Source: an archaeon
GTDB taxonomy: Archaea > Thermoplasmatota > Thermoplasmata > JAJSAE01
Length of the DNA stretch: 64,000 nt
Direction: 5' to 3'
Assembly: GCA_024281315.1 (NCBI GenBank)
Contig: JAJSAE010000075.1
Span: 4,222-68,221, forward strand
Made by a program: the position numbers and the translations under genes. The notes below the pieces were generated by a model. The model made no database searches. It was not told the DNA's origin and saw only the letters and a list, made by a program, of their open reading frames with translations. Numbering within the stretch: position 1 is the first letter of the stretch; each line of letters starts with the position of its first letter. Below are positions 5,323 through 47,092 of this stretch, piece after piece.

Positions 5323-5988
5323 ATGAACCAGAGCAGAGTTATACTGGCCCTTGATGTTACGGACTGCGGTAGAGCGATGGAAATAGTCTCTCAGGCCTCT
5401 CCGTACACAGCCTTTGTCAAGATAAACTGGCCTATCGTGCTTGCGTGCGGGCCGGAGATAATAACCGAGATTTCAAAGATGGCCCCTGTCATATGTGACT
5501 TCAAGGTTGCGGACATACCCAACACCGACCGGCTGATAATAGAGCAGGCAGCGAAGAGGGGGGCCGCAGGCATCATTGTCCACGGATTTACCGGCTCTGA
5601 TTCCATGGAAGCCTGTGTTAAAACAGGGCATAGTGCGGGGACAAAGGTATTTGTGGTATCGGAGATGAGCCACCCGGGCGGCCGGCAGTTCACCGCGGGC
5701 CATGCGGAGGAGATTGTGAGAATGGCTGCGAAATACGGCGCGGATGGCCTCATCGCTCCTGCAACGCGCCCCGAAAGACTTGCGGAGATTAGAAGACTTG
5801 CAGGCGACATGCTCATCCTCTCGCCGGGGGTTGGTGCGCAGGGCGGCAGGGCGGCGGACAGTATAAGGGCCGGTGCCGACTATATAACCGTTGGTAGAGG
5901 CATATACACGGCTGAAAAGCCTGCAGAAGCCGCTAAAAACTATTTTGAGGATTCATTGGCCGCATACCGGGCTAAGAAAAATCTATAA
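5323..5988 (+). CDS. pyrF: orotidine 5'-phosphate decarboxylase
   Basis: Start MNQSRVILALDV (catalytic Asp-x-Lys region), then VKINWP and ICDFKVADIPNT motifs. The ORF-track ORF from 5155 is N-terminally over-extended and overlaps the upstream gene. Confidence 0.8.
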   Translation: MNQSRVILALDVTDCGRAMEIVSQASPYTAFVKINWPIVLACGPEIITEISKMAPVICDFKVADIPNTDRLIIEQAAKRGAAGIIVHGFTGSDSMEACVKTGHSAGTKVFVVSEMSHPGGRQFTAGHAEEIVRMAAKYGADGLIAPATRPERLAEIRRLAGDMLILSPGVGAQGGRAADSIRAGADYITVGRGIYTAEKPAEAAKNYFEDSLAAYRAKKNL

Positions 5989-6020
5989 ATACTTGAGGCA
6001 TATCGCTTCAAGACCGAAGG

Positions 6021-9000
6021 GTGATAATTATGGCAAAGATGCCCAAGATAAGAGCAGATAAAGAATCAAAAACGGTGGAAAAAGGACACAGGCCCCCGTT
6101 CGCCGGCCCGGTCTCTCAATGGCTGGCCGATAACTGGGGAACCCTGCTCCTGATGTTGACAATAGTCGGAATCGCCTTCTTCCTGAGGACATATTTCGGC
6201 TTCGGTCCCGCAACCCAGAACGGCTTTCTCGTATCTGGCGGGTCTGATTCCTACTATCACAAGAGAATCATAGACTATGCTCTCTCCACCGGGCATCAAC
6301 TCTTTCAGGACCCTCTTATCAATTATCCGTTGAGCACGAGGAACCCGAGGCCTCCTCTCTTTGTCTGGAGTAGTGTCATACTGGGCTATATATTCTCCCC
6401 TCTTGTAGGGAGTGTTGATGTTGCCACATGGTATGCATTCCTCTTTAACACGGCTTTCTGGGGCTCTCTGACCGTTATACCCGTCTATTTCATTACAAAG
6501 GAGTCTTTTGGCAAAAAGGCCGGGTTCATCGCCGCATTCCTGCTGGCTATAATGCCAGGCCATATTGAAAGAAGCGTATTCAGTAATGCTGACCACGACG
6601 CCATGGTGCAGTTCTTTGTGGTTCTATCGTTCTTCTTCCTTTTAAAGGCTCTCAAGACCATAAACGGTTCCAGATGGGTAAAGGACTGGAAGAAAAAGGA
6701 TAATGTAATTGACGGCTTGAAGTCCTACTTCGCTGCCAACCGCACCTCTCTTCTTTATTCCATGATGGCTGCCCTCTCCCTCTCCGCAATTGCGATGATA
6801 TGGAAGGGTTTCTCCTATGTTGTGGTTATCATCCTTGTCTACTATCTGGTGGACCTCATCATAAGCCGGTTTAAGAACAGGGATACGCTGGGAAGCACCA
6901 TGGTACTCGCAGTTTCTCTGAGCATGTTCTTCCTGCTGATATTCCCCATATACCTTAATGCCCACATTGTAAAGACATGGTATGATGTTCCGCTTCTCAT
7001 GTTCCTCGGCCTTCTGTTCATAGGGGTGATATTCACGGTGACGCGCGATTACCCTTGGACACTGGTATTCGGAATTTTCCTTATTGTGATGTCTCTCGGA
7101 TATCTCATATTTATGGTTCTACTCCCCTCCATAGGTGAGGCGATTCTTAGCGGGCAGGGCTATCTGGTTCAGAGCAAGCTGTATACCACGATTTCCGAGG
7201 CTCAGGCTCCAGGATTCAGCCACTTGGCAATGTCATTCGGCATGGTCAGTTTCTATCTGGCATTTATCGGTATTGCATGGGCTGCAATAAAGATTCCCAA
7301 GAAGGCCAGTGCGGACTTTATTTTCGTTGTTGTATGGGTGGCTGTGGCAATCTACATGGCCACTTCCGCCGGTCGTTTCGTATTCAATGCGTCTCCCGCC
7401 TTTGCTATAGCCTCCGGCTGGATACTTGCGATGGTTATAGAAGCGCTACACCTGCCCGAGATAAAGAGAAACAGTCGGGGATTTGACTGGAAACACCCGT
7501 GGCCTACCATAAAAAAGGCCATAAAGGTCCGTCATGTTATGGGAGTTATTTTCGTAGCTTTCATGATAATCCTCCCTAATGTCTGGTTTGCAGTGGATGC
7601 AGGCATTCCGTATGAAGTGAAAAGGACATACGATAACCAGATAAATGCCACCCTTCCGTCGTTTATCGCTTCGCCTAACCGCCCTGCCAACAGCATGTGG
7701 TACCTCGGAGCATTCGGTTATTCTCTCCCTCTGAATTCCAACTATTGGCCGGCAGCATGGCGGTGGTTTTCGTCTCAGGATGCCAATATATATCCCGAAG
7801 CAGACCGACCAGCATTCGTAAGCTGGTGGGACTACGGTTTCGAGGCGGCTCAGGAAGGACATCACCCCACGGTGGCGGATAACTTCCAGAACGGATATCA
7901 ATGGGCGGGAAATGTTATAACCGCACAGAACGAAAGCGAGACCATTGCGCTGTTCGAGGGAAGGATAATTGAAACCGCTGTTTTATATGGTGAGAAGCCA
8001 GAGGGCCGTACGGTCATGCCTAACATGAATCCGATTACACTGGAGCAGATAAGCGCATTGATGGATAAGTACGGTATTGACACCCAGAGAGTGATTGATA
8101 TAATAAACAATCCGCAGAATTATGTGGATGTCGTGCTTGAGAACCCAGATGTATACGGCTATTATAACTACGATCTGTCTCCAATTAATGCCAAGTATGC
8201 CATGCTTAAGGTGGAGCTCTCCAAAATTGGGGAGCAGAAAGAGGTGTGGATGTACAACGAGCTTCGCGAACTCACTGGCGACAGCATACAATACTTCGCC
8301 ATAGATTCCAGATTATTTCCATTTGATGCCAGATCCACCGGCATTTTCTATGCGCCCGTAAAACTCTCCGACAGAAGAATTGATAACGGGACAAGAAATC
8401 CCATTGATTTCTATGACATAAAGGCGGTGGATGAGTACGGCAAGGAACATGCACTCAACGAACAGCTGGATCCCAAACTCAAGATAACCTCGTACCAGAT
8501 ACATTACAAAGACATGTTCTACAACTCCATGCTCTATCGTTCCTACATCGGATACAGTGCACAAGATCTGGGGCAGGCGGATGACACCAGCATCCCCGGT
8601 CTTTCCGGCTCTCTTCAGCAACAGCGCCCCATGCAGGCCTGGAATATGAGCCATTTCAAACTGGTATATGTTACTGCGTACTACAATCCATATCCTTCGG
8701 ATCAGGTGAGGGACCATCCTGAGGCATGGACTGCTGTTTCTTACAATGATGCGGCCAAATATCAGCAGGAAATAAAGGCAGGCAACATGACAGGTGTGGT
8801 GGACATGACTCCTGGCTCCGGGTTGAAACAGGGGGTTGTCTTTGTAAAGTACTATGACGGAGCATTGATTAACGGCACAGTTAAGATGGATACCGGCACC
8901 CCCGTCCCCGGTGTACGCGTAACGGTACTGGATGAGTACGGGATTCCTCACGCCTCCACCATCTCCGATGATGCGGGGCGCTATTCTCTTGTCTCTGTTG

Positions 9001-14062: not shown

Positions 14063-14683
14063 TCAGTAGAGAATCCATATGCAGGCATTGTTCCTTAGAA
14101 CCATGTTCAGGTCGGTATTGGTGACACCTGCCTTTTCGAGGAGTATTGGTTTCCACTCGTCAGGGGCTATCTTTTTGGAACCGTCAGGGGCAACCGCAGC
14201 CAGTTGTGCGTACTTAAGCCTCTTCTTCGCCACTGTTATCCTTTCCGCCGCCGCTGCTCTGAAGGTCTGACATATAATACACTGGGTATCATTGACTCCG
14301 GGCTTTACGGTTGAGTTGTAGTAATCGGCAACCTCTTTGTGCACCCTCGCAAAATCTCCTATTCTCTTGGTGTACTCCTTCCAGCCGCGCTCGAACGGAC
14401 ATTTGTGTGTTACCATACAGTGGTTCGTTTTGGCCCGAACACTTTCGAATGTAGATATTATCGACTCCCCTTTTTCGAGAGATTCAACAAAATCCTCCCA
14501 TGTCTTATATTCCTCTTCAGGCATGCTCTTGGCCAATGAGGTGGCGAGGCTGATGAGATAGTTGTTCATTCCAGCAGCACCCTGCTTATCCGCAATGTCC
14601 TCAAGGAAGAGATAGGCAGCAACATCCACCAGTGGGTTCTCTTTTATTTCATATTCCTTATGTATCTCCCTTTCTTCTATCAT
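14063..14683 (-). CDS. hypothetical Cys-motif protein, paralogue A (possible V4R-like)
   Basis: 206 aa. Shares with the adjacent gene the motifs YNSTVK..(x).DTQCIICQTF and LRNNACIWIL versus YNNSVKDTAICNFCVIHQKF and LRNYACVFAIL. Its start overlaps the neighbour's stop (ATGA). Confidence 0.5.
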   Translation of the reverse strand: MIEEREIHKEYEIKENPLVDVAAYLFLEDIADKQGAAGMNNYLISLATSLAKSMPEEEYKTWEDFVESLEKGESIISTFESVRAKTNHCMVTHKCPFERGWKEYTKRIGDFARVHKEVADYYNSTVKPGVNDTQCIICQTFRAAAAERITVAKKRLKYAQLAAVAPDGSKKIAPDEWKPILLEKAGVTNTDLNMVLRNNACIWILY

Positions 14684-15312
14684 TCTTCCACCTCCTCTTC
14701 GCCCTTAAGCCTTGCACCTTTCATAAGAATGGCAAAGACGCAGGCATAGTTTCTCAGCAGGCTTCTGACATATTCCGGATTTATTCCTATTCTCTTCAGG
14801 CTATCCCTTGCAATCTTCGTCTCACCCTTAAATCCTCTGTCTGCCAGCTGCACGCATTCGAGGGGTTGGTCGGCTACGGTTATGTTCTTGGCTACCTCTT
14901 CTCTGAACTTCTGGTGGATTACGCAGAAGTTGCAGATTGCAGTATCCTTGACGCTGTTATTGTACTCCTCGGCCACAGCGGCATCGGCCTGCGGAACATC
15001 TCCCACACTGTATCTGACCCTTTGCATGGTAGGTTCAAAGACACAGGTTTTCAGAGCATATATGTAGCCCACCACATCTCCGTCGACATCCGTTACTGCC
15101 AGATCGGTCAGTGGGGTTACATCGCCCTCAATTGAGTATGCCGTCCTTCCTTCTCTCAGGGCCACATTGAACGAGGGCCAGCCCATATAGGCTTCCTTCC
15201 CCATCCTCATGGCCAGACTTTCTCCAACTCTTTCCCAGTACTGTATAGTACCTTCCACTCCTGCTTTTTCGCTCATATCCTGTATAAGCGAGACCAGAGC
15301 CACATCAAGCAT
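14680..15312 (-). CDS. hypothetical Cys-motif protein, paralogue B (possible V4R-like)
   Basis: 210 aa. Tandem duplicate of 14063-14683 with the same conserved Cys-containing motifs. Confidence 0.5.
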   Translation of the reverse strand: MLDVALVSLIQDMSEKAGVEGTIQYWERVGESLAMRMGKEAYMGWPSFNVALREGRTAYSIEGDVTPLTDLAVTDVDGDVVGYIYALKTCVFEPTMQRVRYSVGDVPQADAAVAEEYNNSVKDTAICNFCVIHQKFREEVAKNITVADQPLECVQLADRGFKGETKIARDSLKRIGINPEYVRSLLRNYACVFAILMKGARLKGEEEVEE

Positions 15313-15334
15313 TTATTCACCTCCTTTTTCCATG

Positions 15335-17335
15335 TTAATCACCTTTATCTTCTTTCTTCTCTTTTTTATTCTTCTTAATTCTTTTATATAGGGTTCGTCT
15401 GCCGCTCTGAACGGCGGTTGCCTCTCCCCTGTCTATAAGCATCTTTATCCCCATAAGGATATCAGTATATTTGATTCCCTTTGCCCCCCCTCTTATTCTG
15501 GCCATTGTGAGGCCGTTTTCTTCGGGCAGGATTTCTAAAATCTTTGTCAGTATCTCCTCATCGACATCTCCAATATCTTCCTCCGCTCTTTTTGCCGGCT
15601 CTTTTTTCAGCTCTTTGTCGCTATCTTTTCTGTTCTTTTTAGCTTTGACAGCCGCCTTTTCTTTATTCTTTGTTTCATCGGTTCCAGTGATTTTTTCGGG
15701 CTCCGGCGCGGGTGGCTTCTTTCTTTCCCCCTTCTTTGCTTTCGATTTCTTGGATTTTTTGCTCTTTTTCCCCCCGCCTTTTTCAGTCTTTTCAAGAACT
15801 GCCTTTTCTTGTCCCGTGCCCTTTTCTTCCGGGACCGCTCCCTTTTCGGAAACGGAAGGACTCTTTTCTACGCCCGGAACTTCTTTCGCTCTTTCCGTTA
15901 TTTCTCCTTCAGTTTTCCGCATTTCGGGAATCTCGGCCCTCTCTCCGGCAGGGCGGTAATATTTGATGGTCTTTCCTTTTTTCTTTTCGAATATGATTTT
16001 CTCATCTGCCAGCGCTTTAATCTTTTCTTTAAGCGTATCTTTATCCATAACTCCTGAGAGTTTTTTCGCCATGGCCGCGGCGCTCATCGCTTTCTCTTCT
16101 GTTTCCGGCACCGCATAATATATGAATTCGCTCTCTTCATCCAGTTCGCCCAGCCTTTTTCTGGAGGTAATGGTTTCCGTTACGCTCTCCGCTTTTTCTT
16201 CGAGACCTAGATGTTTTACGAGCATGTCTATTTTTGCCCCGTACAGCCCACCTTTCATCTCGCTCATCGCTTTCATGTTGTCAATTTCCTCACGGAGGCG
16301 CTCCTGTCCCTCTCCTATCTCTCTGAGCATTGATGCAAGCTCGTTCTTCTCTGTAGCCCCTATTTTGTCCTCGGTCAGCTTTTCCAGCTCTTTTTTGATG
16401 TCTGATATGGCAGAGTCATAGCGTAGATACATCTTCTTTTCAATGTCTCTGGCGGTCCGATCCATCTGCATTCCCTTTGCATTCAATTGCGCGGAGAGAG
16501 CGGCCACCAGCTGGTTTGTCTGGTTCACTCTCTTCTCCATCTGATCCACCTTCTCCAGAAGGAATGATGTTTTGTCCACCGTGTACTCCTGACTCTTAAT
16601 TTTTATCATGGCTCTGAAGTTTTTGGCCTTGTGATAAGGTATGTATTCCGTGAGTTTGTCCAGAAGAACATCGTATGTGGTCTGTATCTGTTTGGACGAA
16701 ATAAGCCCTTCGGACAGGCTTTTTGCGAGATTATTTGTGCGGATTCTCCGGTTGTTATCGAAACGGAAGAGTTCGCTACCACTGGTCATGAGCCTTACTT
16801 CTTCCAGAGTCTCAGTTATGACTCTCTCGAAATCCCCGGGTCCGAGGCTTTTCCAGAGTTCGCCGACAAGGTCGTCAAGTGTGGACTGATAGACGATTTC
16901 CAGGATATTCGGAGGAATTTTGGAGACATCGAGACTCTCACCGTATCCGACCTCGCTCATTATATCATCTATTTTGTTGTCTATCTTTTCGATGCTGCGT
17001 TCCACATTTTTTCTGTTTTTCTTTTCTTCCGCCTTCTCTGCTTCCATCTCGGTCTTCAGCCGCAGAAGGTGCTCTTCCCTGTTCTTAGTCTCTTCTTTGA
17101 TACTTTCTAACTCTTTTTTCACATCATTGAGATTTTTGAAGTACTCCTCGAACTGACTGTATATCGTATCAAGGCGCTCCAGCACCTCATCCTTCAGCTG
17201 CTTTATGGCATCCAATCCGTCTTCTTTCTGCTGGCTACTCTGGGAATACTCTTCGTTCTGGGGCCTTCCTTCCGTCTCTCCTACCGCATCTTTCATACAA
17301 AACTCCTCAGTTTCCGATCGAGTTCCGGAATCCAT
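15335..17335 (-). CDS. long coiled-coil protein with Lys-rich low-complexity linker and C-terminal winged-helix-like domain
   Basis: 666 aa with very high E/K content and heptad-like segments. KKSKKSKKSKAKKGERKK region, then a C-terminal LTMARIRGGAKGIKYTDILMGIKMLIDRGEA module. Its 5' end overlaps the roadblock gene's 3' end. Confidence 0.6.
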   Translation of the reverse strand: MDSGTRSETEEFCMKDAVGETEGRPQNEEYSQSSQQKEDGLDAIKQLKDEVLERLDTIYSQFEEYFKNLNDVKKELESIKEETKNREEHLLRLKTEMEAEKAEEKKNRKNVERSIEKIDNKIDDIMSEVGYGESLDVSKIPPNILEIVYQSTLDDLVGELWKSLGPGDFERVITETLEEVRLMTSGSELFRFDNNRRIRTNNLAKSLSEGLISSKQIQTTYDVLLDKLTEYIPYHKAKNFRAMIKIKSQEYTVDKTSFLLEKVDQMEKRVNQTNQLVAALSAQLNAKGMQMDRTARDIEKKMYLRYDSAISDIKKELEKLTEDKIGATEKNELASMLREIGEGQERLREEIDNMKAMSEMKGGLYGAKIDMLVKHLGLEEKAESVTETITSRKRLGELDEESEFIYYAVPETEEKAMSAAAMAKKLSGVMDKDTLKEKIKALADEKIIFEKKKGKTIKYYRPAGERAEIPEMRKTEGEITERAKEVPGVEKSPSVSEKGAVPEEKGTGQEKAVLEKTEKGGGKKSKKSKKSKAKKGERKKPPAPEPEKITGTDETKNKEKAAVKAKKNRKDSDKELKKEPAKRAEEDIGDVDEEILTKILEILPEENGLTMARIRGGAKGIKYTDILMGIKMLIDRGEATAVQSGRRTLYKRIKKNKKEKKEDKGD

Positions 17336-18087
17336 GTGTTAATACATTCGTCGGCGAGTATATCCCCTCTCAGCTTCCTAATATGATTTTCTATAACCTT
17401 TTCCATGAACATGGCCCACAGCCTGTCGGTCATGTACGCGGCGCTGGTCCCCATCTCGTTGAACGAAAGTGTGATAATTTCATCTACCTGCCCCACGCCC
17501 ACGGTTTCGGCCACTTTCTTCTTTATGAACTCCAGAATCTCCATGTTCTTCTTGTATTTTCGCGTATGTTTGAATTGTTCTACAAAGAGCTGGCGGCTCA
17601 GTCTTCTGAGTTCGTTGGCAACATCATCGGGTAGAGCTGCAAGGGTAGTGCTATCCATTCTTCTCAGTTCGAAAACATGTTTAAGTACCGCACTGCCGGT
17701 CAGAAGTCTTTTCACGGTTTCGTCCATATCGGTGGGGTCAACATCCTGTGCAAATAGAGAAGCCAGAAAGGCATTGTCCCCGATTCCGGTTATTATCAGC
17801 ACCCCTTCCTTATACTTCTCAATTGCAAGGGTCAGATTCTCGTTCTTCAGCTGTCCGCAGATATATGGTTTCTTCGCCTTCATCAGATTTAGCATAAAGA
17901 ACTGGGGCGGCGTCAGCTGCGGCGGTATGAGGGAGGCGAAAACTCTGCCATCAACGCCGATGAACATCAGTATGTCGATGTTGTTCTCTTCCCGCATATG
18001 CTTCAATTCCATGTTCAGCATGTGCTTTAGAAGAGTGACATCCTCTGCCTCGAGGGTCTTGTCCATCTTCTTAAGGGTTTTCTCCAT
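17293..18087 (-). CDS. Roadblock/LC7 (MglB-like) domain protein with C-terminal extension
   Basis: 264 aa. IDILMFIGVDGRVFASLIP...GVLIITGIGDNAFLASLF matches the Roadblock/LC7 pattern. Confidence 0.55.
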   Translation of the reverse strand: MEKTLKKMDKTLEAEDVTLLKHMLNMELKHMREENNIDILMFIGVDGRVFASLIPPQLTPPQFFMLNLMKAKKPYICGQLKNENLTLAIEKYKEGVLIITGIGDNAFLASLFAQDVDPTDMDETVKRLLTGSAVLKHVFELRRMDSTTLAALPDDVANELRRLSRQLFVEQFKHTRKYKKNMEILEFIKKKVAETVGVGQVDEIITLSFNEMGTSAAYMTDRLWAMFMEKVIENHIRKLRGDILADECINTWIPELDRKLRSFV

Positions 18088-18095
18088 TCTCTCAC

Positions 18096-18971
18096 CTACT
18101 TCAGGCCGTACGAGTCGAAGATTATTTGGAGTGCTTCCTCCGGCGAGTAGTCGTAGTTCCAGTTCTCTTTCATGGCCGTAATTCTCTCTATTACATACTC
18201 GGGAGCCTTGATGAATTTTGCCGTCTTTATGGCTTCGTCGAATATCTTGTCGTAGTCCTTCCCTTCTTCCTCCGTTTTTTCCACTGGATATGCCCTTACC
18301 ACAATACCGACTCCTCTGGAGAATATATAGGGATATACTCCTTCGCCATGCTGGGTTCCTCTCATCTTTATTATATTGAGAGTCCTGTTAAAAGCACCCC
18401 CAATGGGATAGTATTCCAGATGGAATACACCATCAGCCAGATATATCGGCAGAAGCACATCTTCTCCGATGGTCTCCCCAGGCTTGCTGTGTTCCTCAAC
18501 CGTAGCCATGACAACACCGAGTTCCTTCAGGGTGTAGAACAGTTTTCCGATGAGTTCTCTCTGTTCCAGTTTATTTTCGGTGGCCCATATGACCGGTGTC
18601 ATGGGGTCTATGACCACTCTCGTCTTTATGTCGTAATCGCTCCTTGCCTTCACCAACTGGGGCAGCTGCTCTTCTATCATCTTCTTGAAGTTTTTCCCCT
18701 TCAGGTGAATGAAGAACAGATTCTTTTCGTAGTGCTTTTCCATGTCCCAGCCCATCATCTTTGCCTCTTTCATTATCTGCTCGGGCGACTCTTCCATGGT
18801 TACATAGAGACCCTGTTCTCCGTTGTCAATACCGTGCATTAAGAACTGCATGGCAAAGGTGGTTTTTCCAGTCCCGCTGGACCCTACCACTACGATTGCA
18901 CTTTTATCTATCAGGCCCCCCTCTATCAACTGATCCAGGCCATATATTCCCGTTTTTATTCGCTCAACCAT
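18096..18971 (-). CDS. KaiC-like/RecA-superfamily ATPase (single domain)
   Basis: 291 aa. Walker A VVGSSGTGKTT, Walker B-like RVVIDPMT, overall KaiC/RadB-like layout. TAG stop immediately followed by an in-frame TGA. Confidence 0.75.
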   Translation of the reverse strand: MVERIKTGIYGLDQLIEGGLIDKSAIVVVGSSGTGKTTFAMQFLMHGIDNGEQGLYVTMEESPEQIMKEAKMMGWDMEKHYEKNLFFIHLKGKNFKKMIEEQLPQLVKARSDYDIKTRVVIDPMTPVIWATENKLEQRELIGKLFYTLKELGVVMATVEEHSKPGETIGEDVLLPIYLADGVFHLEYYPIGGAFNRTLNIIKMRGTQHGEGVYPYIFSRGVGIVVRAYPVEKTEEEGKDYDKIFDEAIKTAKFIKAPEYVIERITAMKENWNYDYSPEEALQIIFDSYGLK

Positions 18972-18994
18972 TCTCCTACCTCCTTTTATTAGTA

Positions 18995-19885
18995 TTATTC
19001 CTCATCTTCTTTATTAATCTGCTTGCTTAGAAGTTCCGCAAAACTCCTGCTCTTTTTTGCTTCTTCTGAAAGGTTCACAACCTTTTCCTCATCAACCTCA
19101 TACATGGGTTCCTTGAAAGTAGCACTCTCAAAGGCCACCGCAAAGGATTCCGAAGCGGCGATCGCGGATGTGATCTTTTGCATATCCTCCCACGGCGCTG
19201 GAAAGTCTTCTTCTGCAGAGACCTGATTCTTCATATACATGTAATATGTCTCGCCAACCTCGGTGACCCTGTGTTCTTTGTCTATAATCTTGTAATTTTT
19301 AAGGACGGAGAGGCGGTACTCCATCTCCTCCATGCCCATCTCCAGCTCTCTCGATATCTCCCCGACTCCTTTCCCGTGCCGGAGTTCTCTTATTATCTCT
19401 CTGTCTATGGTGTCCAGAGCGATTTTATATACCGCAAGAGGCTGTATGGCCACGATGAATGTGCATCTATCTGCTCCCTCATTCATGCAGATTGTCTCTT
19501 TCGCTTCCGACGGCAGTCCGAGATCCTTTGTAAAGAACTCTTCCAGCGCGTCGCTAGTTATATAGCATGTCTTTTTTCCTTTAAGCCGGTATGCTTTCGC
19601 CACGGGATTCTCAGGCACGGAGAATACATATCTGAAATTCTCTACTCTTGTTATCTCCATCCTGCCGAGACCGATGTTCTCGAAGAGGTCGGTCATGAAT
19701 TGATAGAGCGGCGTGTTCGATATTTCCGTGGCATTGGCGCACTTCAGCATCTTTCTCACTTCCGATGGCGGTACGCGAGAACTCTCCAGTGCCGCCCTAA
19801 TTGCCGAGTCTATCTTTGTAAGCTTTCCGAGAACGGCAAGCCCTTCGGCAAAGGATTCGAAGTTGCCAAGTTCCCCTTCCTTCAT
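18995..19885 (-). CDS. V4R-domain protein with HTH region
   Basis: 296 aa. KGKKTCYITSDALEEF...ETICMNEGADRCTFIV fits the V4R C...G...C.F signature. Central DREIIRELRHGKGVGEISRELEM is HTH-like. Confidence 0.55.
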   Translation of the reverse strand: MKEGELGNFESFAEGLAVLGKLTKIDSAIRAALESSRVPPSEVRKMLKCANATEISNTPLYQFMTDLFENIGLGRMEITRVENFRYVFSVPENPVAKAYRLKGKKTCYITSDALEEFFTKDLGLPSEAKETICMNEGADRCTFIVAIQPLAVYKIALDTIDREIIRELRHGKGVGEISRELEMGMEEMEYRLSVLKNYKIIDKEHRVTEVGETYYMYMKNQVSAEEDFPAPWEDMQKITSAIAASESFAVAFESATFKEPMYEVDEEKVVNLSEEAKKSRSFAELLSKQINKEDEE

Positions 19886-20448
19886 TAGATATCCCCCCTG
19901 AGTTTTATGATGAATTTTCTGTCCTCCTCACCAAGAATCGAAATGCCTCTTTCGGTGATGTTTTCCCCGGAAATGTATCCCTCGCCTTCCGCTTTTTCTA
20001 TAAGATGATATATTCTCCTTTCGTCTGTTTTCATGAGGGAGGAGATGAGAAGCGGCGAGTGTAATCCTACCCCCCATAGTTTTACCAGATTTATCAGTTC
20101 GTCATCCTCTCCCGTTGTCACCAGTTGTGGCAGAAGAAAATGTCTTAATGCCATGAGTGTTTCCGCTCTTTCTCCCGACACTTCGATGTCCAATGCGGGT
20201 ATATTGATGCGCAGCCTCGGAGGGTCGTCCTCGGTAATGGTCATATCTATTATTTTTTCTATGGGAATTTCATACCATACATTTCCGTCAGATATCATGA
20301 TCCCAGACATGGCCAGATATATCTTCCCCTCTTTCCACACGAGACCTATGTTTATCCCGGAGTCTCTGGGACTTATTGCGAACTTGACTTCTTCGAGTTG
20401 GTATGCCTTCATGAATGGCCTCCTTTCTCCTCTTATAGTCGGATGCAA
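19885..20448 (-). CDS. hypothetical protein (first gene of the operon; possible wHTH at C-terminus)
   Basis: 187-aa ORF. Its stop overlaps the downstream start, and the AT-rich putative promoter lies directly upstream. Confidence 0.4.
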   Translation of the reverse strand: MHPTIRGERRPFMKAYQLEEVKFAISPRDSGINIGLVWKEGKIYLAMSGIMISDGNVWYEIPIEKIIDMTITEDDPPRLRINIPALDIEVSGERAETLMALRHFLLPQLVTTGEDDELINLVKLWGVGLHSPLLISSLMKTDERRIYHLIEKAEGEGYISGENITERGISILGEEDRKFIIKLRGDI

Positions 20449-25347: not shown

Positions 25348-26052
25348 TCAGAACAAATGAGGAAGTGCAAAAAACATGGCAACGGAGGTTGCAATCAGCA
25401 GAATATAAATTGGAATGTTCCACCTCCAGATCTTCGAGCCGTCCAGAGGAGGTATGGGCAGGAGGTTGAAACCGGCCAGAAGGAAGTTTATGCTGGCCAC
25501 GCTGTATGCAGCCATCAGAATCGGGGTGTAGTTTACCAGCATAATTACAGGTATGAGGGAGAAGCCTATGGCAAGATTTACAACGGGCCCGGCCATGGAT
25601 ATCTTTGCGTTCTGCTCCTGATTAATCCTGCCGGAAATCATCACCGCACCCGGTGCCGCAAATACGAATCCCATGAGCGAGAAAAGGAGGGCCATTAATA
25701 TCCCTCTCGGAAAGGCCCGGAATTCCGCCCAGCAGCCGTATTTCTGGGCCACGAACTTGTGCCCCATTTCATGAAAAACAAATCCGCTGAATACGGCAAG
25801 AAAGGAGACAAGCAGGGAATAAAGGAAGATCGGTATGCTGTGATTGTACATCACTCTCGAATAGACAATTGCGAAGGCAAGGGTGAGGCCGCCCACTGCA
25901 ATGGCCAGGTCGCGAATCTCCTGCGGACTGAAGGACAACCTTCGGCGAGGAGGCGTATAGGCATAGGCGACTTCGTACGGGCCGTAATTCATGATTGATG
26001 CAATAATGGATGAGTATATAAGCCTTCCATCACATGTGAAAAATCGAGGCAA
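25348..26052 (-). CDS. site-2 protease-like M50 membrane metalloprotease
   Basis: 234 aa and polytopic. HExxH motif as FHEMGHKFVAQKYG. Confidence 0.7.
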   Translation of the reverse strand: MPRFFTCDGRLIYSSIIASIMNYGPYEVAYAYTPPRRRLSFSPQEIRDLAIAVGGLTLAFAIVYSRVMYNHSIPIFLYSLLVSFLAVFSGFVFHEMGHKFVAQKYGCWAEFRAFPRGILMALLFSLMGFVFAAPGAVMISGRINQEQNAKISMAGPVVNLAIGFSLIPVIMLVNYTPILMAAYSVASINFLLAGFNLLPIPPLDGSKIWRWNIPIYILLIATSVAMFFALPHLF

Positions 26053-26094
26053 ATTATTTATAAATCCTTCCCTTAGTCATGGTGAGGCATTATA

Positions 26095-26424
26095 TTGAAA
26101 AGACAAGAGAACAATAACCCCGGGGACGAGTATGTCCGTGTCAAACTTCCCAACAGGCGTAAGGGAGAGATGTTTGCCATAGCAGACCAGTTGCTCGGTG
26201 CCGGAAAGATACGAATTGTATGCGAGGACGGAAAATCAAGGCTCGGCCGCATTCCGGGAAAGATAAAAAAGAGGATGTGGATACGGGAGAAGGACCTGCT
26301 CATTGTGATTCCATGGGATTTTCAGGACGAAAAGGCCAACATTCTTTACAGATACACCAATACTCAGGCCAGTTATCTGAGCAGAAGCAATAAGATTCCC
26401 CCGGGCATAGATATCTACAAATAG
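26095..26424 (+). CDS. eif1a: translation initiation factor aIF-1A
   Basis: 109 aa. YVRVKLPNRRKGEMFAIAD...RLGRIPGKIKKRMWIREKDLLIV is the classic IF-1A OB-fold sequence. Apparent TTG start. A TATA-like tttataaat lies about 30 nt upstream. Confidence 0.85.
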   Translation: MKRQENNNPGDEYVRVKLPNRRKGEMFAIADQLLGAGKIRIVCEDGKSRLGRIPGKIKKRMWIREKDLLIVIPWDFQDEKANILYRYTNTQASYLSRSNKIPPGIDIYK

Positions 26425-26432
26425 GTGCATGA

Positions 26433-27224
26433 ATGGAGGAAGAAAAATATCGTTTTCTGGAGCATCGACTCGAGGGTCTTAATATACGGGAGAAGGATAG
26501 CTCCGCCCGAAAAACCATGGATGAGGTCTTTGACGAGAAGACTCTTCTTACCCTGTACAAACTGATGACCAGAGGTGTTATAGAAAAACTCGAGTTTCCC
26601 ATATCCACCGGTAAGGAAGGAAATGTTTTTCTGGGACTGGATAGAGATGGAGGGCAGCTTGCCGTCAAAATATACCGTACTTCCAATGCCACATACAGAA
26701 GTCTCGCCAGATACATTGAGGATGACCCCAGATTTCGAAAGGTGAAGAGGAACAGAAGGGCCTTAATCAAGGAATGGGCGAGAAAGGAGTTTCAGAACCT
26801 GCACAGATACAGGAATACCTCCCTTCCCGTGCCGGAACCGGTAGCTGTGCTGGACAATGTTCTCGTTATGACCTATGTTTCTCTTGACGAAAGTCCTGCG
26901 CCCCAGTTGAGAAGTATCGGGCTGAAGGCAGATATTTTGCAGGCTGTATTCGACACGGTGGCCGATTTCATAGTCAGGGGATACCATGAGGCGAAACTGG
27001 TTCACGGAGATCTCAGCGAGTTTAACATACTTTATTCCGATTCCGGCCCGGTCGTCATCGATGTGGGGCAGGCGGTCATTTCGAGTTATGCCATGGCTCC
27101 CATATATCTGAAAAGGGATATCGAAAACATAAGAAAGTACTTCCTGCGTAACGGTGCGGATATTTCAAATCCTGCTCTTGACGAACTTGTTTCTCAGTTG
27201 AAAACAGAGCATCTTCTACTGTAA
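26433..27224 (+). CDS. rio1: RIO-type serine/threonine protein kinase (Rio1-like)
   Basis: 263 aa. STGKEGNVF, LVHGDLSEFN and IDVGQAV motifs. The aIF1A-Rio pairing is common in archaea. Confidence 0.85.
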   Translation: MEEEKYRFLEHRLEGLNIREKDSSARKTMDEVFDEKTLLTLYKLMTRGVIEKLEFPISTGKEGNVFLGLDRDGGQLAVKIYRTSNATYRSLARYIEDDPRFRKVKRNRRALIKEWARKEFQNLHRYRNTSLPVPEPVAVLDNVLVMTYVSLDESPAPQLRSIGLKADILQAVFDTVADFIVRGYHEAKLVHGDLSEFNILYSDSGPVVIDVGQAVISSYAMAPIYLKRDIENIRKYFLRNGADISNPALDELVSQLKTEHLLL

Positions 27225-27269
27225 ACCTCAGAAAAACAATAATAAATAAAGGAAAGGGATTTCAGGGTC

Positions 27270-28619
27270 TTAAACGACCCTCTTTTTCACAACTTTCTTG
27301 ACGGCTATCGGAGGCTTGACCACCTTCTTTTCCTTCTCTTTCTCCTTCTCGCCGCCTTTCAGTTCGAAACCGCAGGCGTAGCATATCTCCGCATCCTTGC
27401 TGATCATTGTTCCGCAGTTGGGGCACGGCATCTCGTCGGATTCCTCTTCGCCGCCCGCTTCTTCTTCGGAAGCGCCGCCTTTCAGTTCGAAACCGCAGGC
27501 ATAGCATATCTCCGCATCCTTGCTGATCATTGTTCCGCAGTTGGGGCACGGCATCTCGTCTGATTCCTCCTCGGATGTCTCCGGCTCGGGGGATGTCTCT
27601 TCAGCGGCCTCCTCCTTTGCCTCTTCCTCTCCACCCTTGAGGTTGTATCCGCAGGCGTAGCATATCTCCGCATCCTTACTCACGATTGTTCCGCAGTTTG
27701 GACAGGGCATCTCGTCTGATTCCTCTTCGGATGTCTCCGGTTCGGGGGGTGCCTCTTCAGCGGCCCCCTCCGGGGCCTCTTTTTCGGCTTCCTCTTCAGC
27801 TTTCTCTTCTTCGGGTGCCGCCTCGGGTTCCGGTTCGGGGACACTGACCTCTTTAACCTCAACCTCTGGGATATCGATGGAAGGGGCCTCTACGGGCTCC
27901 ATATCAGGAAGTTCCACGGCCTGAACCTCTCCCTTCAGCGACTCCTCATGGGCAAGAACCTGCTTCTCCTTCTCAAGGAGTTCCTTCTCGTCGGTCACTA
28001 GTTTTTCTCTGGCCGCCGTAAGTTTCTCCTCCTCTTCGAGGATGACCCTTTCGTGGGAAACAAGTTCCTCCTGCTTTGTTTTCAGGGAATTGAGCAGTTC
28101 CGCAAGCTCCTCGTTCATGCGGGATATTGCCTCCATTCTTTCGAGGATACCCTTTCTTTTCTCGGAGATCTCTTTCTCCATAAAGACCACGGATTCCATT
28201 CTGGTGCCGATCTCCTCTTCTCTCTGAATAATCGCCTTCTCTCTTCCCATGAGCGCCTTTTCTCTCTCCACCACGGAGTTTTCCTTGGCGGCTACTGCTT
28301 CTTTCATGGAATTGATGCCTTTTAACTTTGAGTTTAACTCTTCCACCTTGGAGTCGATTTCGGCCTTTTTCTCTTCTAGAATCTTCTTTGCCTCGTCAAT
28401 CTCCTCCATCTTGCTGCGGTACTCGCTCTCGAGAGTTTCGGCCCTCTTCTCCTTTTCCGCAACAGATTGCTCTCTCGACTCCAGTTCGGCCTTCCTCTCG
28501 CGGAGTTCCGCCTCTGCACGAGCAATCTCTTCCTTCTTTTCCTTGACCTCTCGCTCCTGTTCTTTAAGGGATTCCAGCTGCTTTTGCATCTGGTCCCAGA
28601 ATGATTCGCCTTCTGCCAT
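27270..28619 (-). CDS. coiled-coil protein with three tandem C-terminal Zn-ribbon modules and KK-rich tail
   Basis: 449 aa. The N-terminal ~280 aa are E/K/L-rich coiled coil. Three repeats of DEMPCPNCGT(I/M)(V/I)SKDAEICYACG(Y/F)(N/E)LKGG, then KEKEKEKKVVKPPIAVKKVVKKRVV. Confidence 0.6.
   Translation of the reverse strand: MAEGESFWDQMQKQLESLKEQEREVKEKKEEIARAEAELRERKAELESREQSVAEKEKRAETLESEYRSKMEEIDEAKKILEEKKAEIDSKVEELNSKLKGINSMKEAVAAKENSVVEREKALMGREKAIIQREEEIGTRMESVVFMEKEISEKRKGILERMEAISRMNEELAELLNSLKTKQEELVSHERVILEEEEKLTAAREKLVTDEKELLEKEKQVLAHEESLKGEVQAVELPDMEPVEAPSIDIPEVEVKEVSVPEPEPEAAPEEEKAEEEAEKEAPEGAAEEAPPEPETSEEESDEMPCPNCGTIVSKDAEICYACGYNLKGGEEEAKEEAAEETSPEPETSEEESDEMPCPNCGTMISKDAEICYACGFELKGGASEEEAGGEEESDEMPCPNCGTMISKDAEICYACGFELKGGEKEKEKEKKVVKPPIAVKKVVKKRVV
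27349..27790. repeat. three tandem ~120-145-nt direct repeats encoding the Zn-ribbon modules
   Basis: Copies 1 and 2 (about 27349-27470 and 27472-27600) are nearly identical over more than 100 nt (gccgcctttcagttcgaaaccgcaggc(g/a)tagcatatctccgcatccttgctgatcattgttccgcagttggggcacggcatctcgtc...). Copy 3 is more diverged but shares its 3' segment (catctcgtctgattcct...ggatgtctccgg.tcggggg) with copy 2. Confidence 0.8.
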
Positions 28620-28741
28620 TTTTCAATCCCCCTTAAGGTATCTCTTCTTTATTCTATCTCGTATTCTGTCTTATTCGCCGTTCGGTGCCTGTTTCCTATA
28701 CAGTGTAATGTCATGATATTATTAAACACTTTTGTTCGCCT

Positions 28742-29440
28742 CTACTCGAATATCGGGCCGAGGACCCTTATGCCCCCCTTGCCCACCTCTATTGCGTGCT
28801 TCTCCATGCTGTGCTGGGATGCCCTCATCTTCTCCACCTGAAGATATCTGGTGAGTTTTCCCCTGCTCCTGTCAAGCCCCAGAAGAATTATGCCGTCCAC
28901 AAGGAAGCCCTCGTTTCCGAGGAGTTGGGACGGTTCTCCGGGAATTCTCTCCATTATCACAAAGGAATAAAGGTTGTTTTCTCTCAGCATCTTGAAGAAG
29001 TAGAACATCTTCTTTCTCATGTCCTCTTCATGCTCCATTAGAGAGTAAATGGCGCCGAGAGAATCGAGTGCGAATATGGAGAACTGGTCCTTCTTTTTCT
29101 TCTTGAAGTGAACAATCATCTTCTCTATGAACTGAAGATAATCCGTGCCCTCGTCGTCAACCACGGCATCAATGTCTCTCAGGTCGGTAAAGTCCGATAT
29201 CTGCATGTTTCGGGTGAGTTTTACCCCGAGGCTCTTCATGTTCGTGAGGTGGCTGTCCACTGTTTCTTCGAGGGTGGTATACAGGCCGAACTCTCCGGTC
29301 GCATCCAGATACCTGGACATGAGCGTATACACGAAACTGGTCTTCATGGAGCCGGGGGGGCCTGTAATCAGGATAACCTTCGGTTTGCCGATATCCGTTT
29401 TGAATATCTTGTCGAGTCCTTCTATGGAATTCTTGAACAT
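28742..29440 (-). CDS. KaiC-like/RecA-superfamily ATPase (short, single domain)
   Basis: 232 aa. Walker A ILITGPPGSMKTSF, Walker B-like SIFALDSLG. KaiC-like profile. Confidence 0.7.
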   Translation of the reverse strand: MFKNSIEGLDKIFKTDIGKPKVILITGPPGSMKTSFVYTLMSRYLDATGEFGLYTTLEETVDSHLTNMKSLGVKLTRNMQISDFTDLRDIDAVVDDEGTDYLQFIEKMIVHFKKKKKDQFSIFALDSLGAIYSLMEHEEDMRKKMFYFFKMLRENNLYSFVIMERIPGEPSQLLGNEGFLVDGIILLGLDRSRGKLTRYLQVEKMRASQHSMEKHAIEVGKGGIRVLGPIFE

Positions 29441-29487
29441 TTTAGTCCTCCTCTGTCAGAATTTCGTTCCCTTAATGGCACAGAGGT

Positions 29488-32002
29488 TTATAAACCTTGC
29501 CCGCCAGCCGCCTCCGGTTCGTTCTCTGTCTTGACCTCATCTTCATCCGCTTTTTCGGCCAGTCTGGCCACAGCGCTTACCTTGTCGCCGCTTCTGAGCC
29601 TCATTATCCTTACGCCCTGCGTTGCTCTGCCCATGACCCGCAGGTCCGCAACCGACATTCTTATTATCATTCCTTCTTTGCTGGTGACTATAAGTTCGTC
29701 GCTGGGGGTGACCTCCAGAACAGCTTTGACCGGTCCGTTCCTCTCGTTCACCTTTATCGTGATAACGCCCTGAGAGCCGCGGTGCGTCCTCCTGTAATCC
29801 CTCACCCACGATAGTTTTCCATAGCCGTTTTCAGTAATTGTGAGAAGTATGGACGAATCATTACCGGTGGATGTGCTGACCACCTCGTCGTCTTTGCGCA
29901 GTCGTATTCCTATGACTCCGTGAGAATTCCTGCCCATTGGCCTCATTTCGCTCTCGTGGAATCTCGCGGCCTTTCCGTACTTTGTGGCTATAAGAACATC
30001 CCGGTCTCCGTCGGTAATTCTGGTGTCTATGAGTTCGTCGTCATCCCAGAGCGCAATAGCGATAATGCCCGTGGTTCTCGGTCTTGAATACGCCTCTAAT
30101 GGAGTCTTCTTCACTCTCCCTTTCTTCGTGGTGAAGAGCAGGAACCTGTCTCCGGTGAATTCTCTGACATGGATTGTGTTGACTATGGCCTCCCCCTTCT
30201 CCAACCTCGGCAGAAGATTCACTATGGGACGACCTTTGGCGTGCCTCCCAGCTTCCGGAATTCTGTAGGCTTTTAGCCAGTACACCCTTCCGCGGTTGCT
30301 GAAGAACATGATGTAACTGTGCGATGAGGTAACGAACATATCCACCACATCGTCCTCCTCCTTGGTTGTCATTCCCTTGAGCCCGACTCCGCCCCTTCTC
30401 TGCTGGTGGTAGGTGTCCACTGGCATCCTTTTTATATAGCCGGTTCGGGTGATGGTGATTACCACATCCTCCTCCGGTATCAGGTCTTCAATATCCATAT
30501 CTATCTCCTGATCAACAATATCCGTCTTCCTTCCGTCGCCGAACTTTTCTTTGAGGGCAATCAGGTCCTCCTTTATCATGGCCAGAATCCTCTCTTCCGT
30601 TGCGAGTATGTCCTTATAATCCTCTATCTTTTTCTGAACCTCGTCGTACTCCGCCTTGACAGCCTCCCTCTCCATGCCAGTGAGCTTCTGCAAGCGCATG
30701 TCGAGGATTGCCTTGGCCTGAACCTCTTTCAGGAGGAAGCGGGAGATAAGCGCAAGTTTTGCTTCGTCCACCGTCTTCGCCTTTCTTATGAGCCTTATGA
30801 CCTCGTCCAGATTGTCAAGTGCAATGAGGATACCGTCAAGTATGACAGCCCTGTCCTCCGCTTTTCTGAGAAGATACTGCGTCCTTCTGGTGATAACATC
30901 CTTCCTGTGCTCTATGTAGTGATGAATGAGAGATTTGAGGGGGAGTGTCTTCGGCTCGTTATTCACAAGGGCAAGATTGTTTATTCCGAATGTGGTCTCC
31001 AGCTGGGTGTGGGCGAATAGCTGATTCAGAACAATCTCCTCCATGACATCCTTCCTCAGTTCGATAACAATCCTCATGCCGGAGCGGTCCGATTCGTCCC
31101 GCAGGTCGGTTATTCCGTCTATCACCCTATCCCTCACCAATTTCGCAATGGCCTCCATGAGATTGGACTTGTTCACCATGTACGGTATTTCATTAACGAT
31201 AATTCTCCGCTTCCCGTTCTTCAACTCCTCTATATTCGTCTTTGCCCGAACCTTTATCGTGCCCCTGCCAGTGCTGTATGCGCGAAGTATGCCGCTTCTT
31301 CCATATATTGTTCCCACGGTGGGGAAATCCGGTCCGTTTATCACGGACATAAGGTCCAGAAGAGGAATTTCCGGGTCGTCAATCTGCATGATTATGGCAT
31401 CCACGACCTCGCTGAGGTTGTGCGGGGCCATGTTTGTGGCCATTCCAACCGCTATACCCGACGAGCCGTTCACAAGAAGATTGGGGAGGACAGCGGGGAG
31501 AACCGTAGGCTCCTTCAAACTGCCGTCGAAGTTGTCCACAAAATCCACGGTATCTTTGTCTATATCCTCCAGCATGGTGGCCGCAATCTTACCCAGCCTG
31601 CACTCGGTATATCTCATGGCCGCAGCCCTGTCACCGTCCACCGAGCCAAAGTTTCCCTGCCCGTCAACAAGCGTGTACCTGAGAGAAAACGGCTGAGCCA
31701 TCCTCACAAGGGAGTCATAGACCGCACTGTCACCGTGGGGGTGGTACTTACCGAGAACCTCTCCCACAACCCTTGCTGACTTCTTGTACGGCCTGCTGTG
31801 TATGAGGCCCATGTCGTTCATGGCGTAAAGGATTCTCCTGTGAACAGGTTTCAGGCCGTCCCTCACATCGGGCAGAGCGCGGCCAACAATGACGCTCATG
31901 GCGTAGTCTATGTAGGCCTTCTTCATCTCGTGCTCCACCGGCTCGTTAAGTATCGTCTCGCCGGAGGGGGCGGTCTGGTCCGTGTTATCATCGTCTGGCA
32001 TA

Positions 32003-32028
<26 letters not shown>
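29488..32028 (-). CDS. gyrA: DNA gyrase subunit A
   Basis: 846 aa. [44 protein letters not shown] and the AAMRYTE catalytic Tyr region, plus C-terminal beta-pinwheel repeats. The true start may be an internal Met (MIDM/MPDD), which would reduce the overlap with the RM gene. Confidence 0.95.
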
Positions 32029-37580
<5,552 letters not shown>

Positions 37581-42311: not shown

Positions 42312-43106
42312 ATGGCAGACGAGCAGAAGGTTCGCGAAACGCGTTCATGGCTGAAGGGATACGACAAGGGAATGAGAGATGCATGGGAGGCCATGCGAAA
42401 ACTCACCCGTCGCGGCCTTACCCCGGCAGAGCTTAAAATCATGCTGGACAGTGAGGTTCAGAACATCCCCCGTGCCGTGGATGAGCGGAAAAAGGCCTTC
42501 GAAAAGGCTCTGGGTGTCTCCCTTGACGAGGAGAAAAAGAGCGCATTTCGGGAGATTCCCGAGATGGAGGCCGGCCAGAGTTATCTCGTTAGAGAGGATA
42601 GGCCAAGCATCAGTTTCGAACTGTTCAAGCAGCTTATTAAGGAAGGAAACCCGCCACTCTGCATTGTAAGGACCCCTCCAAAGACGACGCGCGAGAGATA
42701 CACTATCCCCGAGGACATCAGAATTCTCTGGCTCACCAAGTCTGAGAACCCGCATAGAAAGAGCAGTTCTGGAATACTCACAGCAACCCTTGGAATCGGC
42801 GCAATGGATGCGGACAGCGGGGGGGAGGACAATACCTATCTTTCCCCTACCAACCTATCGACCATATTGTCCATTATCGTGGATTTTCTGGAGGGGGCTG
42901 GGGACGGAAAGAATCCCGTTCTCCTGCTTGAGGGCGTCGAGTACCTGATAACCCAGAACGAGTTCAAGAGTGTTCTTCGTTTCCTGCAGAACATAAACGA
43001 AAAGATTGCCATGCGGGATGCCTACTTCATCGTGCCCATAACAGAGGGGGCGCTCGAGCAGAAGCAGTTTAAATTGATAGAGAAGGAGATGAGCGTGGTC
43101 ATCTAG
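42312..43106 (+). CDS. DUF835-like protein (possible KaiC-derived, ATPase-motif-less domain)
   Basis: 264 aa. C-terminal [59 protein letters not shown] resembles DUF835. There is no Walker A. Confidence 0.4.

Positions 43107-43550: not shown

Positions 43551-47088
<3,538 letters not shown>

Positions 47089-47092
<4 letters not shown>

Follow-up and report, generated by a model that had tools for sequence, protein, structure and literature searches.

Described KaiC-like systems

Of the archaeal regulators that still lack an explanation, the KaiC-like ATPases are some of the most abundant, and to our knowledge almost none of the archaeal ones has a defined partner. The gene pair described here lies in a stretch of 64,000 nucleotides (nt) from an archaeon of the Thermoplasmatota (contig JAJSAE010000075.1, assembly GCA_024281315.1), referred to as the window. 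It consists of a gene for a KaiC-like ATPase of 232 amino acids (aa) and, downstream on the same strand, a gene for a 449-aa protein with a coiled coil and three zinc (Zn) ribbons, called the partner below.

KaiC itself, with KaiA and KaiB as its working partners, is built of two tandem domains (about 500 aa), whereas the window ATPase has a single domain with Met instead of the last P-loop Gly. No KaiB-like neighbour was seen among the genes adjoining the pair. The only well-studied single-domain KaiC-like protein of archaea known to us is ArlH, which has a canonical Walker A motif. Autophosphorylation of ArlH controls its oligomerisation (as a hexamer) and its binding to ArlI, and the docked oligomer also depends on nucleotide (bioRxiv 10.1101/2021.03.19.436134). 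The window ATPase resembles ArlH in consisting of one KaiC/RecA domain that stands alone (about 230 aa) and keeps the catalytic Glu. Unlike ArlH, which has ArlI as partner, it is paired with a coiled-coil/Zn-ribbon protein and no archaellum genes are found nearby.

A wider frame is the concept of Makarova, Galperin and Koonin (2017) that KaiC-like ATPases are hubs of archaeal signal transduction, considered here in the form in which it is cited in PMC5847659. With the concept in that form the pair shares a KaiC-family gene in a conserved neighbourhood with non-enzymatic partners (the partner in 65/68 loci, a third gene in 43/69), and distant members of its clade adjoin DUF835, REC, HK, PadR and TPR genes. 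It differs from the concept as so cited in that the window partner is without a sensor or DNA-binding output domain. DUF835 is an inactivated KaiC-like domain, 'iKaiC' (PMC5847659). Literature searches, with the 2017 survey outside their reach, gave no account of the ATPase subfamily, of the partner or of the P-loop substitution.

Conservation of the gene pair

Searched with a profile of the ATPase, the species-representative genomes of GTDB gave 263 relatives; the best 80 loci of these were analysed and the 183 more distant ones left out. Clustering of open reading frames (ORFs) places the partner directly downstream of the ATPase in 73 of these 80 loci. Of the 68 loci with at least 1300 nt of downstream sequence, 65 have the partner, the exceptions having been checked by hand, and order and orientation are kept. 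The informative names among the loci are Thermoplasmata, Thermoplasmatota, Methanomassiliicoccales, Ca. Saliniplasma, Ca. Haladaptatiplasma and Ca. Proteinoplasmatales, and the lineages of the relatives include Ca. Halarchaeoplasmatales. An ATPase with 67% identity on a metagenome contig is also followed by a coiled-coil/Zn-ribbon partner.

The flanking genes differ between relatives and are unrelated housekeeping genes. gyrA, the RIO kinase gene and eIF1A adjoin the pair only in the relative with 97% identity (L001), 1 of the 80 loci. The adjacency to gyrA is lineage-local, and a conserved linkage to gyrA or to DNA-replication genes was rejected. Adjacency, order and orientation that are kept while the surroundings vary are the classical signature of a functional pair, and the ATPase and coiled-coil/Zn-ribbon genes can with high confidence be regarded as one.

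The first-pass annotation of this DNA had reported two ORFs of 232 and 449 aa on the same strand with a gap of 122 nt, and had proposed them as a unit. The two ORFs are found as reported, and the unit is kept in 65 of 68 related species-level genomes, so that the pairing is not unique to the window genome. Neither the family scans nor the homology and literature searches turned up a well-established unrelated role for the partner.

The ATPase and its P-loop

The ATPase matches the Pfam family KaiC (PF06745; COG0467-type) over residues 4-227 of 232 (E 6e-33; 114.5 bits, cut-off 26.6). The nearest solved structures are PH0186 (2ZTS), KaiC, PH0284 (2DR3) and SSO2452 (2W0M), all but KaiC being uncharacterised archaeal proteins, with E-values from 8e-25 to 1e-13. 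The alignment to these relatives is full length and includes Walker A and B, the EE pair and the KMR motif.

The Walker A motif, GPPGSMKT, does not fit the canonical pattern GxxxxGK[ST]. Met-32 takes the position of the last P-loop Gly and stands opposite the Gly of GtGKT in KaiC and PH0186. The deviant motif is identical in 20 of 20 aligned orthologues. The Walker A Lys-Thr, the catalytic E58/E59, D126 of Walker B and K204-M205-R206 are kept in the ATPase and constant in the same orthologues, and E58/E59, D126 and the KMR motif align with their counterparts in KaiC and PH0186. An AlphaFold model made with 20 close homologues had a predicted local distance difference test score (pLDDT) of 63, which is too poor for a fold search or for inspection of the P-loop, and was left unused.

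The ATPase is 68-77% identical to the orthologues in the 80 Thermoplasmatota species genomes, across orders; one near-identical metagenome-assembled genome has 97%. This very high conservation suggests a housekeeping role in cell biology, as scaffold or regulator, and not an accessory or defence function.

Several other identities were tried for the ATPase and rejected. A circadian KaiC does not agree with the presence of one domain only, and the models NF006799 and TIGR02655 gave 82 and 47 bits against cut-offs of 408 and 546. The ArlH/FlaH model NF052589 gave 20.9 bits (cut-off 215), and no arl genes are found among the adjacent ORFs. No NCBIfam model of RadA or RadB matched at E <= 0.01; the KaiC-like ATPase of a second module in the window, described below, gives weak matches of this kind. 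As to anti-phage defence, a PADLOC scan of the proteins gave marginal matches only (E about 1e-3), and the ATPase is strongly conserved across species.

The partner protein

The first 235 residues of the partner contain no Pro and are 47% charged. The periodicity of their hydrophobic residues has its peaks at exactly 3.5 and 7.0 residues, with a power of 1017 that none of 300 shuffled sequences attained (mean 57, maximum 387), and the region is therefore a long in-register heptad coiled coil. A coiled coil of about 280 aa had been described in the first reading; the rod is shorter, about 235 aa, and is followed by the Pro-rich acidic linker. The three Zn-ribbon modules, the acidic linker and the KK-rich tail of that description were all recovered by Pfam, charge and sequence.

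The ribbons have the Cys pattern C-x2-C-x10-C-x2-C (306/309/320/323 in the first copy). They resemble the generic prokaryotic ribbons (zinc_ribbon_2/Zn_ribbon_3/DZR) and match Pfam models above their cut-offs: PF13248 three times (E 4e-21; 74.0 bits, cut-off 27), PF13240 three times (59.5 bits, cut-off 25) and PF12773 (DZR) twice (66.6 bits, cut-off 27.3). The units are tandem duplications at the DNA level, with one period of 123 nt (97% match) and one of 156 nt (87%). The RanBP2/NZF finger (W-x-C-x2-C-x3-N-x6-C-x2-C) shares the Cys spacing and was rejected, as the Trp before the first Cys and the Asn are absent.

The net charge is -1 to -3 for each ribbon and -6 and -12 for the linkers between them, and the whole protein has an isoelectric point (pI) of 4.5 and a net charge of -59. 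This acidic composition argues for protein-binding ribbons on flexible acidic tethers. Only the last 20 residues or so are basic. The tail, GEKEKEKEKKVVKPPIAVKKVVKKRVV, has a net charge of +7, and the pI of residues 423-449 is 10.2. The last ten residues have the consensus V-K-K-V-[LSM]-K-K-[KR]-[VI]-[IV]-COOH in 60 complete orthologues. An amphipathic membrane-targeting helix was considered for the tail and is not supported, the hydrophobic moment being 0.27 at 100 degrees, with the maximum at 70-80 degrees.

The number of ribbons varies from 1 to 4 in the 60 complete orthologues and is most often 2. Across these sequences the coiled coil can hardly be aligned, and BLAST matches lie mostly in the ribbon region, with 44-61% identity. 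A motif at the N-terminus, S[ILFV]x[DE]x[LMI], is found in 44 of 68 partner orthologues and in about 3% of other ORFs; variants are SILDALDAL and SIWEVMQKQ, and the window has SFWDQMQKQ. Low-complexity words overwhelmed a homology search with the entire 449-aa protein; it gave four weak matches with no orthologue among them, and the orthologues were taken from the loci instead. An SMC/Rad50-type identity was rejected: the partner has no ABC head domains, and the SMC model gave 25.8 bits (cut-off 567), ASRP 18.7 bits (cut-off 300) and JetC a weak match.

A third gene in relatives

In 43 of the 69 loci with enough upstream sequence, a third gene encoding 420-560 aa lies divergently upstream of the ATPase. 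The protein has two or three Zn ribbons of the kind found in the partner, about 30-35% identical to the window ribbons; an acidic linker then leads to a domain of about 255 aa at the C-terminus. A SIxDxL-type motif is found in the N-terminal region of at least 19 of 44 third-gene proteins. The place of the third gene is held by gyrA in the window and in the relative with 97% identity.

The C-terminal domain is confidently modelled as three-helix-bundle repeats and has no Pfam family, no sequence match in the PDB and no significant match in Foldseek. No sequence similarity to EzrA-type spectrin-like scaffolds was found for the third-gene protein, and many generic helical bundles match equally well. 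EzrA has an N-terminal membrane anchor where the third-gene protein has N-terminal Zn ribbons. The third-gene ribbons superpose on those of Nup153, TRABID and ArnA at 0.9-1.6 A over about 26 residues, the domain being too short for significant E-values. Their likeness to RanBP2/NZF is one of shape only.

The wider clade with a deviant P-loop

An exhaustive search with the ATPase covered 1.84 billion representatives, of which the best 150 were inspected, reaching about 30% identity. Walker A was found in 130 of these, with Leu in 55, Met in 52 and Phe, Val or Ile in 6 at the site of the last Gly (113/130). Gly itself is found at this site in only 15 of the 130, and those listed are long multi-domain KaiCs. 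A large clade of KaiC-like proteins of about 230 aa with the motif GxxG[ST][LMF]K[ST] is seen in this set (P0141-P0290).

The clade takes in proteins of Methanothrix with 46% identity to the window ATPase, and their neighbours are REC-HK-DUF835-PadR and an adjacent TPR gene. Other members are found beside DUF835 genes or PH-like/wHTH proteins, or have no obvious partner. A TPR-like gene lies upstream of the ATPase in one locus (L172), and TPR-KaiC and HhH-TPR-KaiC fusions exist. Helical-repeat partners are a recurring theme of the clade. Because the members of the wider clade adjoin different genes, the coiled-coil/Zn-ribbon partner is specific to the Thermoplasmatota subfamily, at about 67% ATPase identity or more.

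Two other kinds of neighbour were observed. A protein with the Pfam families Sigma70_r2/r4 is encoded 3' of a distant KaiC-like gene with a deviant P-loop in L085 (748-1473) and L170 (853-1527), and in L170 the next gene is REC-DUF835. In L082 a 163-aa protein (5711-6202, + strand) is encoded 3' of an ATPase with 39% identity and the motif GPPGCMKS. It has one helical hairpin like the repeat of the third gene and a linker rich in P and Q. Its C-terminal tail, KKPAVIKIKRKN, is basic and similar to the K-ILKRK form of the tail that some coiled-coil/Zn-ribbon orthologues have. A profile comparison of the third-gene helical domain with this protein was not significant (probability 5%).

Comparison with the second KaiC module of the window

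The window contains another KaiC-like ATPase with a nearby coiled-coil gene, in the module at 15335-18971 (module 1), and the first-pass annotation had ascribed the same logic to both, a recurrent unit of KaiC and a coiled-coil nucleic-acid binder. This proposal is not supported. The two ATPases are 23% identical and that of module 1 has the canonical Walker A GSSGTGKT. The 666-aa coiled-coil protein of module 1 and the 449-aa partner have no detectable similarity.

Scanning metagenomes with the module-1 ATPase yielded 80 loci (L088-L167). The core of the module, at 14063-20448 on the - strand of the window, consists of the KaiC gene (291 aa; 80 of 80 loci) and genes for proteins of 264 aa (74), 210 aa (63) and 206 aa (58), and no Pfam family was found for any of the core partner proteins. 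In only 16 of these loci, all of them closest relatives, does the 666-aa gene separate the 264-aa gene from the 210-aa gene; it is therefore a lineage-specific addition rather than the partner that defines the unit. An upstream V4R/wHTH gene is present in 23 loci and a 187-aa gene in 15. The 210-aa and 206-aa proteins match each other and are probably paralogues.

The two modules share only a KaiC-family gene, and their partners are unrelated. This fits the published picture in which archaeal KaiC-like ATPases occur in a variety of gene neighbourhoods (PMC5847659), and it corrects the idea of 'KaiC + coiled coil' as a repeated unit in the window genome.

Layout of the locus and other genes of the window

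The features of the locus are given in Table 1. The ATPase gene begins 47 nt past the gyrA stop codon, with a GGAGGA Shine-Dalgarno sequence 5' of the ATG. In the spacer between the two genes there is a TATA-like sequence, TTTAATAATA, at 28717-28726, 97 nt 5' of the partner start, and a GGGGG Shine-Dalgarno sequence at 28628-28632, 8 nt 5' of the same start. The spacers of the relatives have a median length of 85 nt, and an A/T-rich TATA-like box was found in 21 of 62 scanned, mostly 53-65 nt 5' of the partner start. Because of the TATA-like box the partner gene may have its own promoter. The T-rich stretch 3' of the partner is a probable transcription stop, on which the RIO kinase gene (+ strand) converges. 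An Rfam scan of positions 26000-30000 of the window, spacer included, gave no match.

A high-GC soil clade has a conserved GC-rich inverted repeat in the spacer, GCCGACGCCTGGGAGGCTCGGCG, in place of the A/T-rich box (L028, L029, L036, L041-L050, L055, L058, L059, L070-L080). It may form an RNA hairpin.

Table 1. Coordinates of the gene pair, its parts and an example of the third gene (window positions unless a locus is named).
Feature	Position	Strand	Basis
ATPase gene ('KaiC2', 232 aa), single KaiC/RecA-family domain	28742..29440	-	Pfam PF06745, solved-structure relatives, orthologues
Deviant Walker A GPPGSMKT, ATPase residues 27-34	29339..29362	-	20 orthologues aligned; structure alignments
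Intergenic spacer from ATPase to partner, 122 nt	28620..28741	-	read from sequence
Coiled-coil/Zn-ribbon partner gene, 449 aa	27270-28619	-	ORF
Coiled-coil rod, partner residues 1-235; N-terminal motif ESFWDQMQKQLE	27915..28619	-	heptad periodicity
Acidic Pro-rich flexible linker, residues 236-302	27714..27914	-	net charge -25, pI 4.05
Three Zn ribbons, residues 303-330, 355-382 and 395-422, with acidic linkers between	27354..27713	-	Pfam
Basic C-terminal tail, residues 423-449, ending VKKVVKKRVV-COOH	27273..27353	-	charge computation
T-rich stretch 3' of partner stop, ...CCTTTCCTTTATTTATTATTGTTTTTCTG	27225..27269	-	read from sequence
Third gene, example	L005 4376-5842	-	loci L004-L080; proteins P0125-P0140

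Other genes of the window were noted in passing. The usual gyrB-gyrA pair is parted by a gene for a fused restriction-modification enzyme of 1175 aa (32003-35530, - strand), which lies between gyrB (35499-37412) and gyrA (29488-32028). The enzyme matches the Eco57I methylase (E 3e-44), N6_Mtase, the MmeI methyltransferase domain and the TaqI_C specificity domain; it is therefore Type IIG/IIL-like, and it looks like an inserted defence gene. A DUF835 protein of 264 aa (42312-43106, + strand; E 1e-29) is the third component of the KaiC network in the same 64 kb. A STAND-like AAA_16 and TPR protein of 731 aa is followed by a TPR protein of 288 aa (44015-47092, - strand). An ORF of 297 aa (55998-56891, - strand), adjoining a TFB-like gene and the PolD large subunit, has a sub-threshold match to the tubulin/FtsZ GTPase family (31.5 bits, cut-off 33) that covers the C-terminal part of the model only, and may encode a divergent or truncated protein of the tubulin superfamily.

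Interpretation

The preferred reading, with a probability of about 0.5, is a module of two genes specific to the Thermoplasmatota, joined in many relatives by a third, in which a KaiC-family switch ATPase is combined with a coiled-coil adaptor or scaffold. By analogy with ArlH, the ATPase would probably be a hexamer, dependent on nucleotide or autophosphorylation, that docks on the partner and does no mechanical work on DNA. The partner would probably dimerise through its coiled coil to give a rod of about 35 nm, and the conserved tail probably fixes one end of the rod to the ATPase or to an anionic surface, with membrane lipids likeliest and nucleic acid possible. If bound to membrane, the tail would act as a polybasic/hydrophobic patch and not as a MinD-type helix. 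The ribbons on their acidic tethers are probably multivalent protein-binding modules that recruit other proteins, in many lineages including the third protein, which with its Zn ribbons and three-helix-bundle repeats would probably belong to the same assembly. Confidence in any specific cellular process for the pair is low.

Some observations weigh against this module. The spacer of about 85-120 nt is long and a TATA-like box is present in 21 of 62, and the two genes are therefore perhaps transcribed separately. The ATPase could be a pseudo-ATPase. Sampled relatives at 48% identity or less have different neighbours and no coiled-coil/Zn-ribbon gene, and a hidden Markov model search found the third gene to be absent from the window. 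The tail makes a poor amphipathic alpha-helix, and binding to membrane would therefore need electrostatic and hydrophobic contacts together.

A doubtful alternative is that the partner binds nucleic acid through its ribbons and basic tail, and that the ATPase, as a member of the RecA superfamily, serves to load, remodel or regulate the partner on DNA or RNA, the two forming a recurrent unit. The strongly basic tail (+7) agrees with this, and the ribbon topology includes RNA binders; ZRANB2 and ribosomal Zn-ribbon proteins are structural neighbours of the third-gene ribbons. One distant fusion has a RadA-type HhH domain, and the window pair adjoins gyrA and is near the PolD small subunit. Nucleic-acid binding had been the first suggestion for the partner, with families such as the TFIIB-type ribbons as a means of recognising it, and on this point the results do not support it. 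The ribbons are acidic, the linkers carry -6 to -25 and the whole protein -59 at a pI of 4.5, and only the end of the chain is basic. No nucleic-acid-specific ribbon family reached its cut-off on the partner: Zn_ribbon_TFIIB gave no match, DUF1610-type matches stayed below the threshold, and TFS4 gave 20.9 bits (cut-off 120), PRK14890 (putative Zn-ribbon RNA-binding) 17.6 (cut-off 61) and HVO_2753 16.6 (cut-off 80). The adjacency to gyrA occurs in 1 of 80 loci, and the coiled-coil gene of module 1 is neither a conserved KaiC partner nor related in sequence.

Equally tentative is a scaffold of the division apparatus or envelope, which overlaps in part with the switch-and-adaptor module. The coiled-coil protein, tethered by its tail, and the protein with spectrin-like repeats would here organise a cytoskeletal element, analogous to EzrA, ZipA or SepF-type anchors, and the ATPase would regulate its assembly. 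A long rod with a terminal polybasic/hydrophobic tail and an ATPase that is 68-77% identical across orders are consistent with such a role, as is the report that several Thermoplasmata are without SepF and the PRC-barrel partners of FtsZ (PMC10936438). Against it, in the 80 loci no ftsZ, cdv or actin gene was seen as a conserved neighbour of the pair, and the tail is weak as an amphipathic helix.

The action of GvpD on GvpE is the model for a third and somewhat less probable alternative, in which the KaiC-like protein sets the level or the stability of the partner, or of a client recruited by the ribbons, and the two form no stable structural complex. The ATPase has a weak match to the Pfam GvpD P-loop family (E 0.0015), and stronger GvpD_P-loop matches occur in distant members of the clade; the apparently separate promoter would suit unequal expression of regulator and target. 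The match of the ATPase is, however, under the curated cut-off, no gas-vesicle gene cluster lies beside the pair in the window, and nothing ties the pair to a protease. The remaining proposal, that two unrelated genes stand side by side by chance, could appeal to a spacer that is long for an operon and to the TATA-like box in some spacers, but it is very improbable and effectively refuted by synteny, since 65 of 68 species-level genomes, from several orders and with differing flanks, have the two genes adjacent in an unchanged order and orientation.

Significance of the pair

The switch-and-adaptor module has a more far-reaching form, which is unlikely on present evidence: the pair and the third protein would make up a new cytoskeleton-like or membrane-tethered scaffold machine of the Thermoplasmatota, regulated by a KaiC-family protein with a non-standard nucleotide cycle from its remodelled P-loop. 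If this is true, the KaiC-like switches would include a separate mechanistic class, so far undescribed, in the form of the broad GxxG[ST][LM]K[ST] clade.

For the archaeal KaiC-like ATPases in general the pair is a clean case, with an ATPase subfamily about 70% identical over several orders and a single, faithfully linked, modular partner made up of rod, tethers, ribbons and tail. It makes the binding target and the binding mode of an archaeal KaiC-like protein directly testable. The deviant Walker A motif, in turn, marks a large clade whose nucleotide chemistry may depart from that of textbook P-loops.

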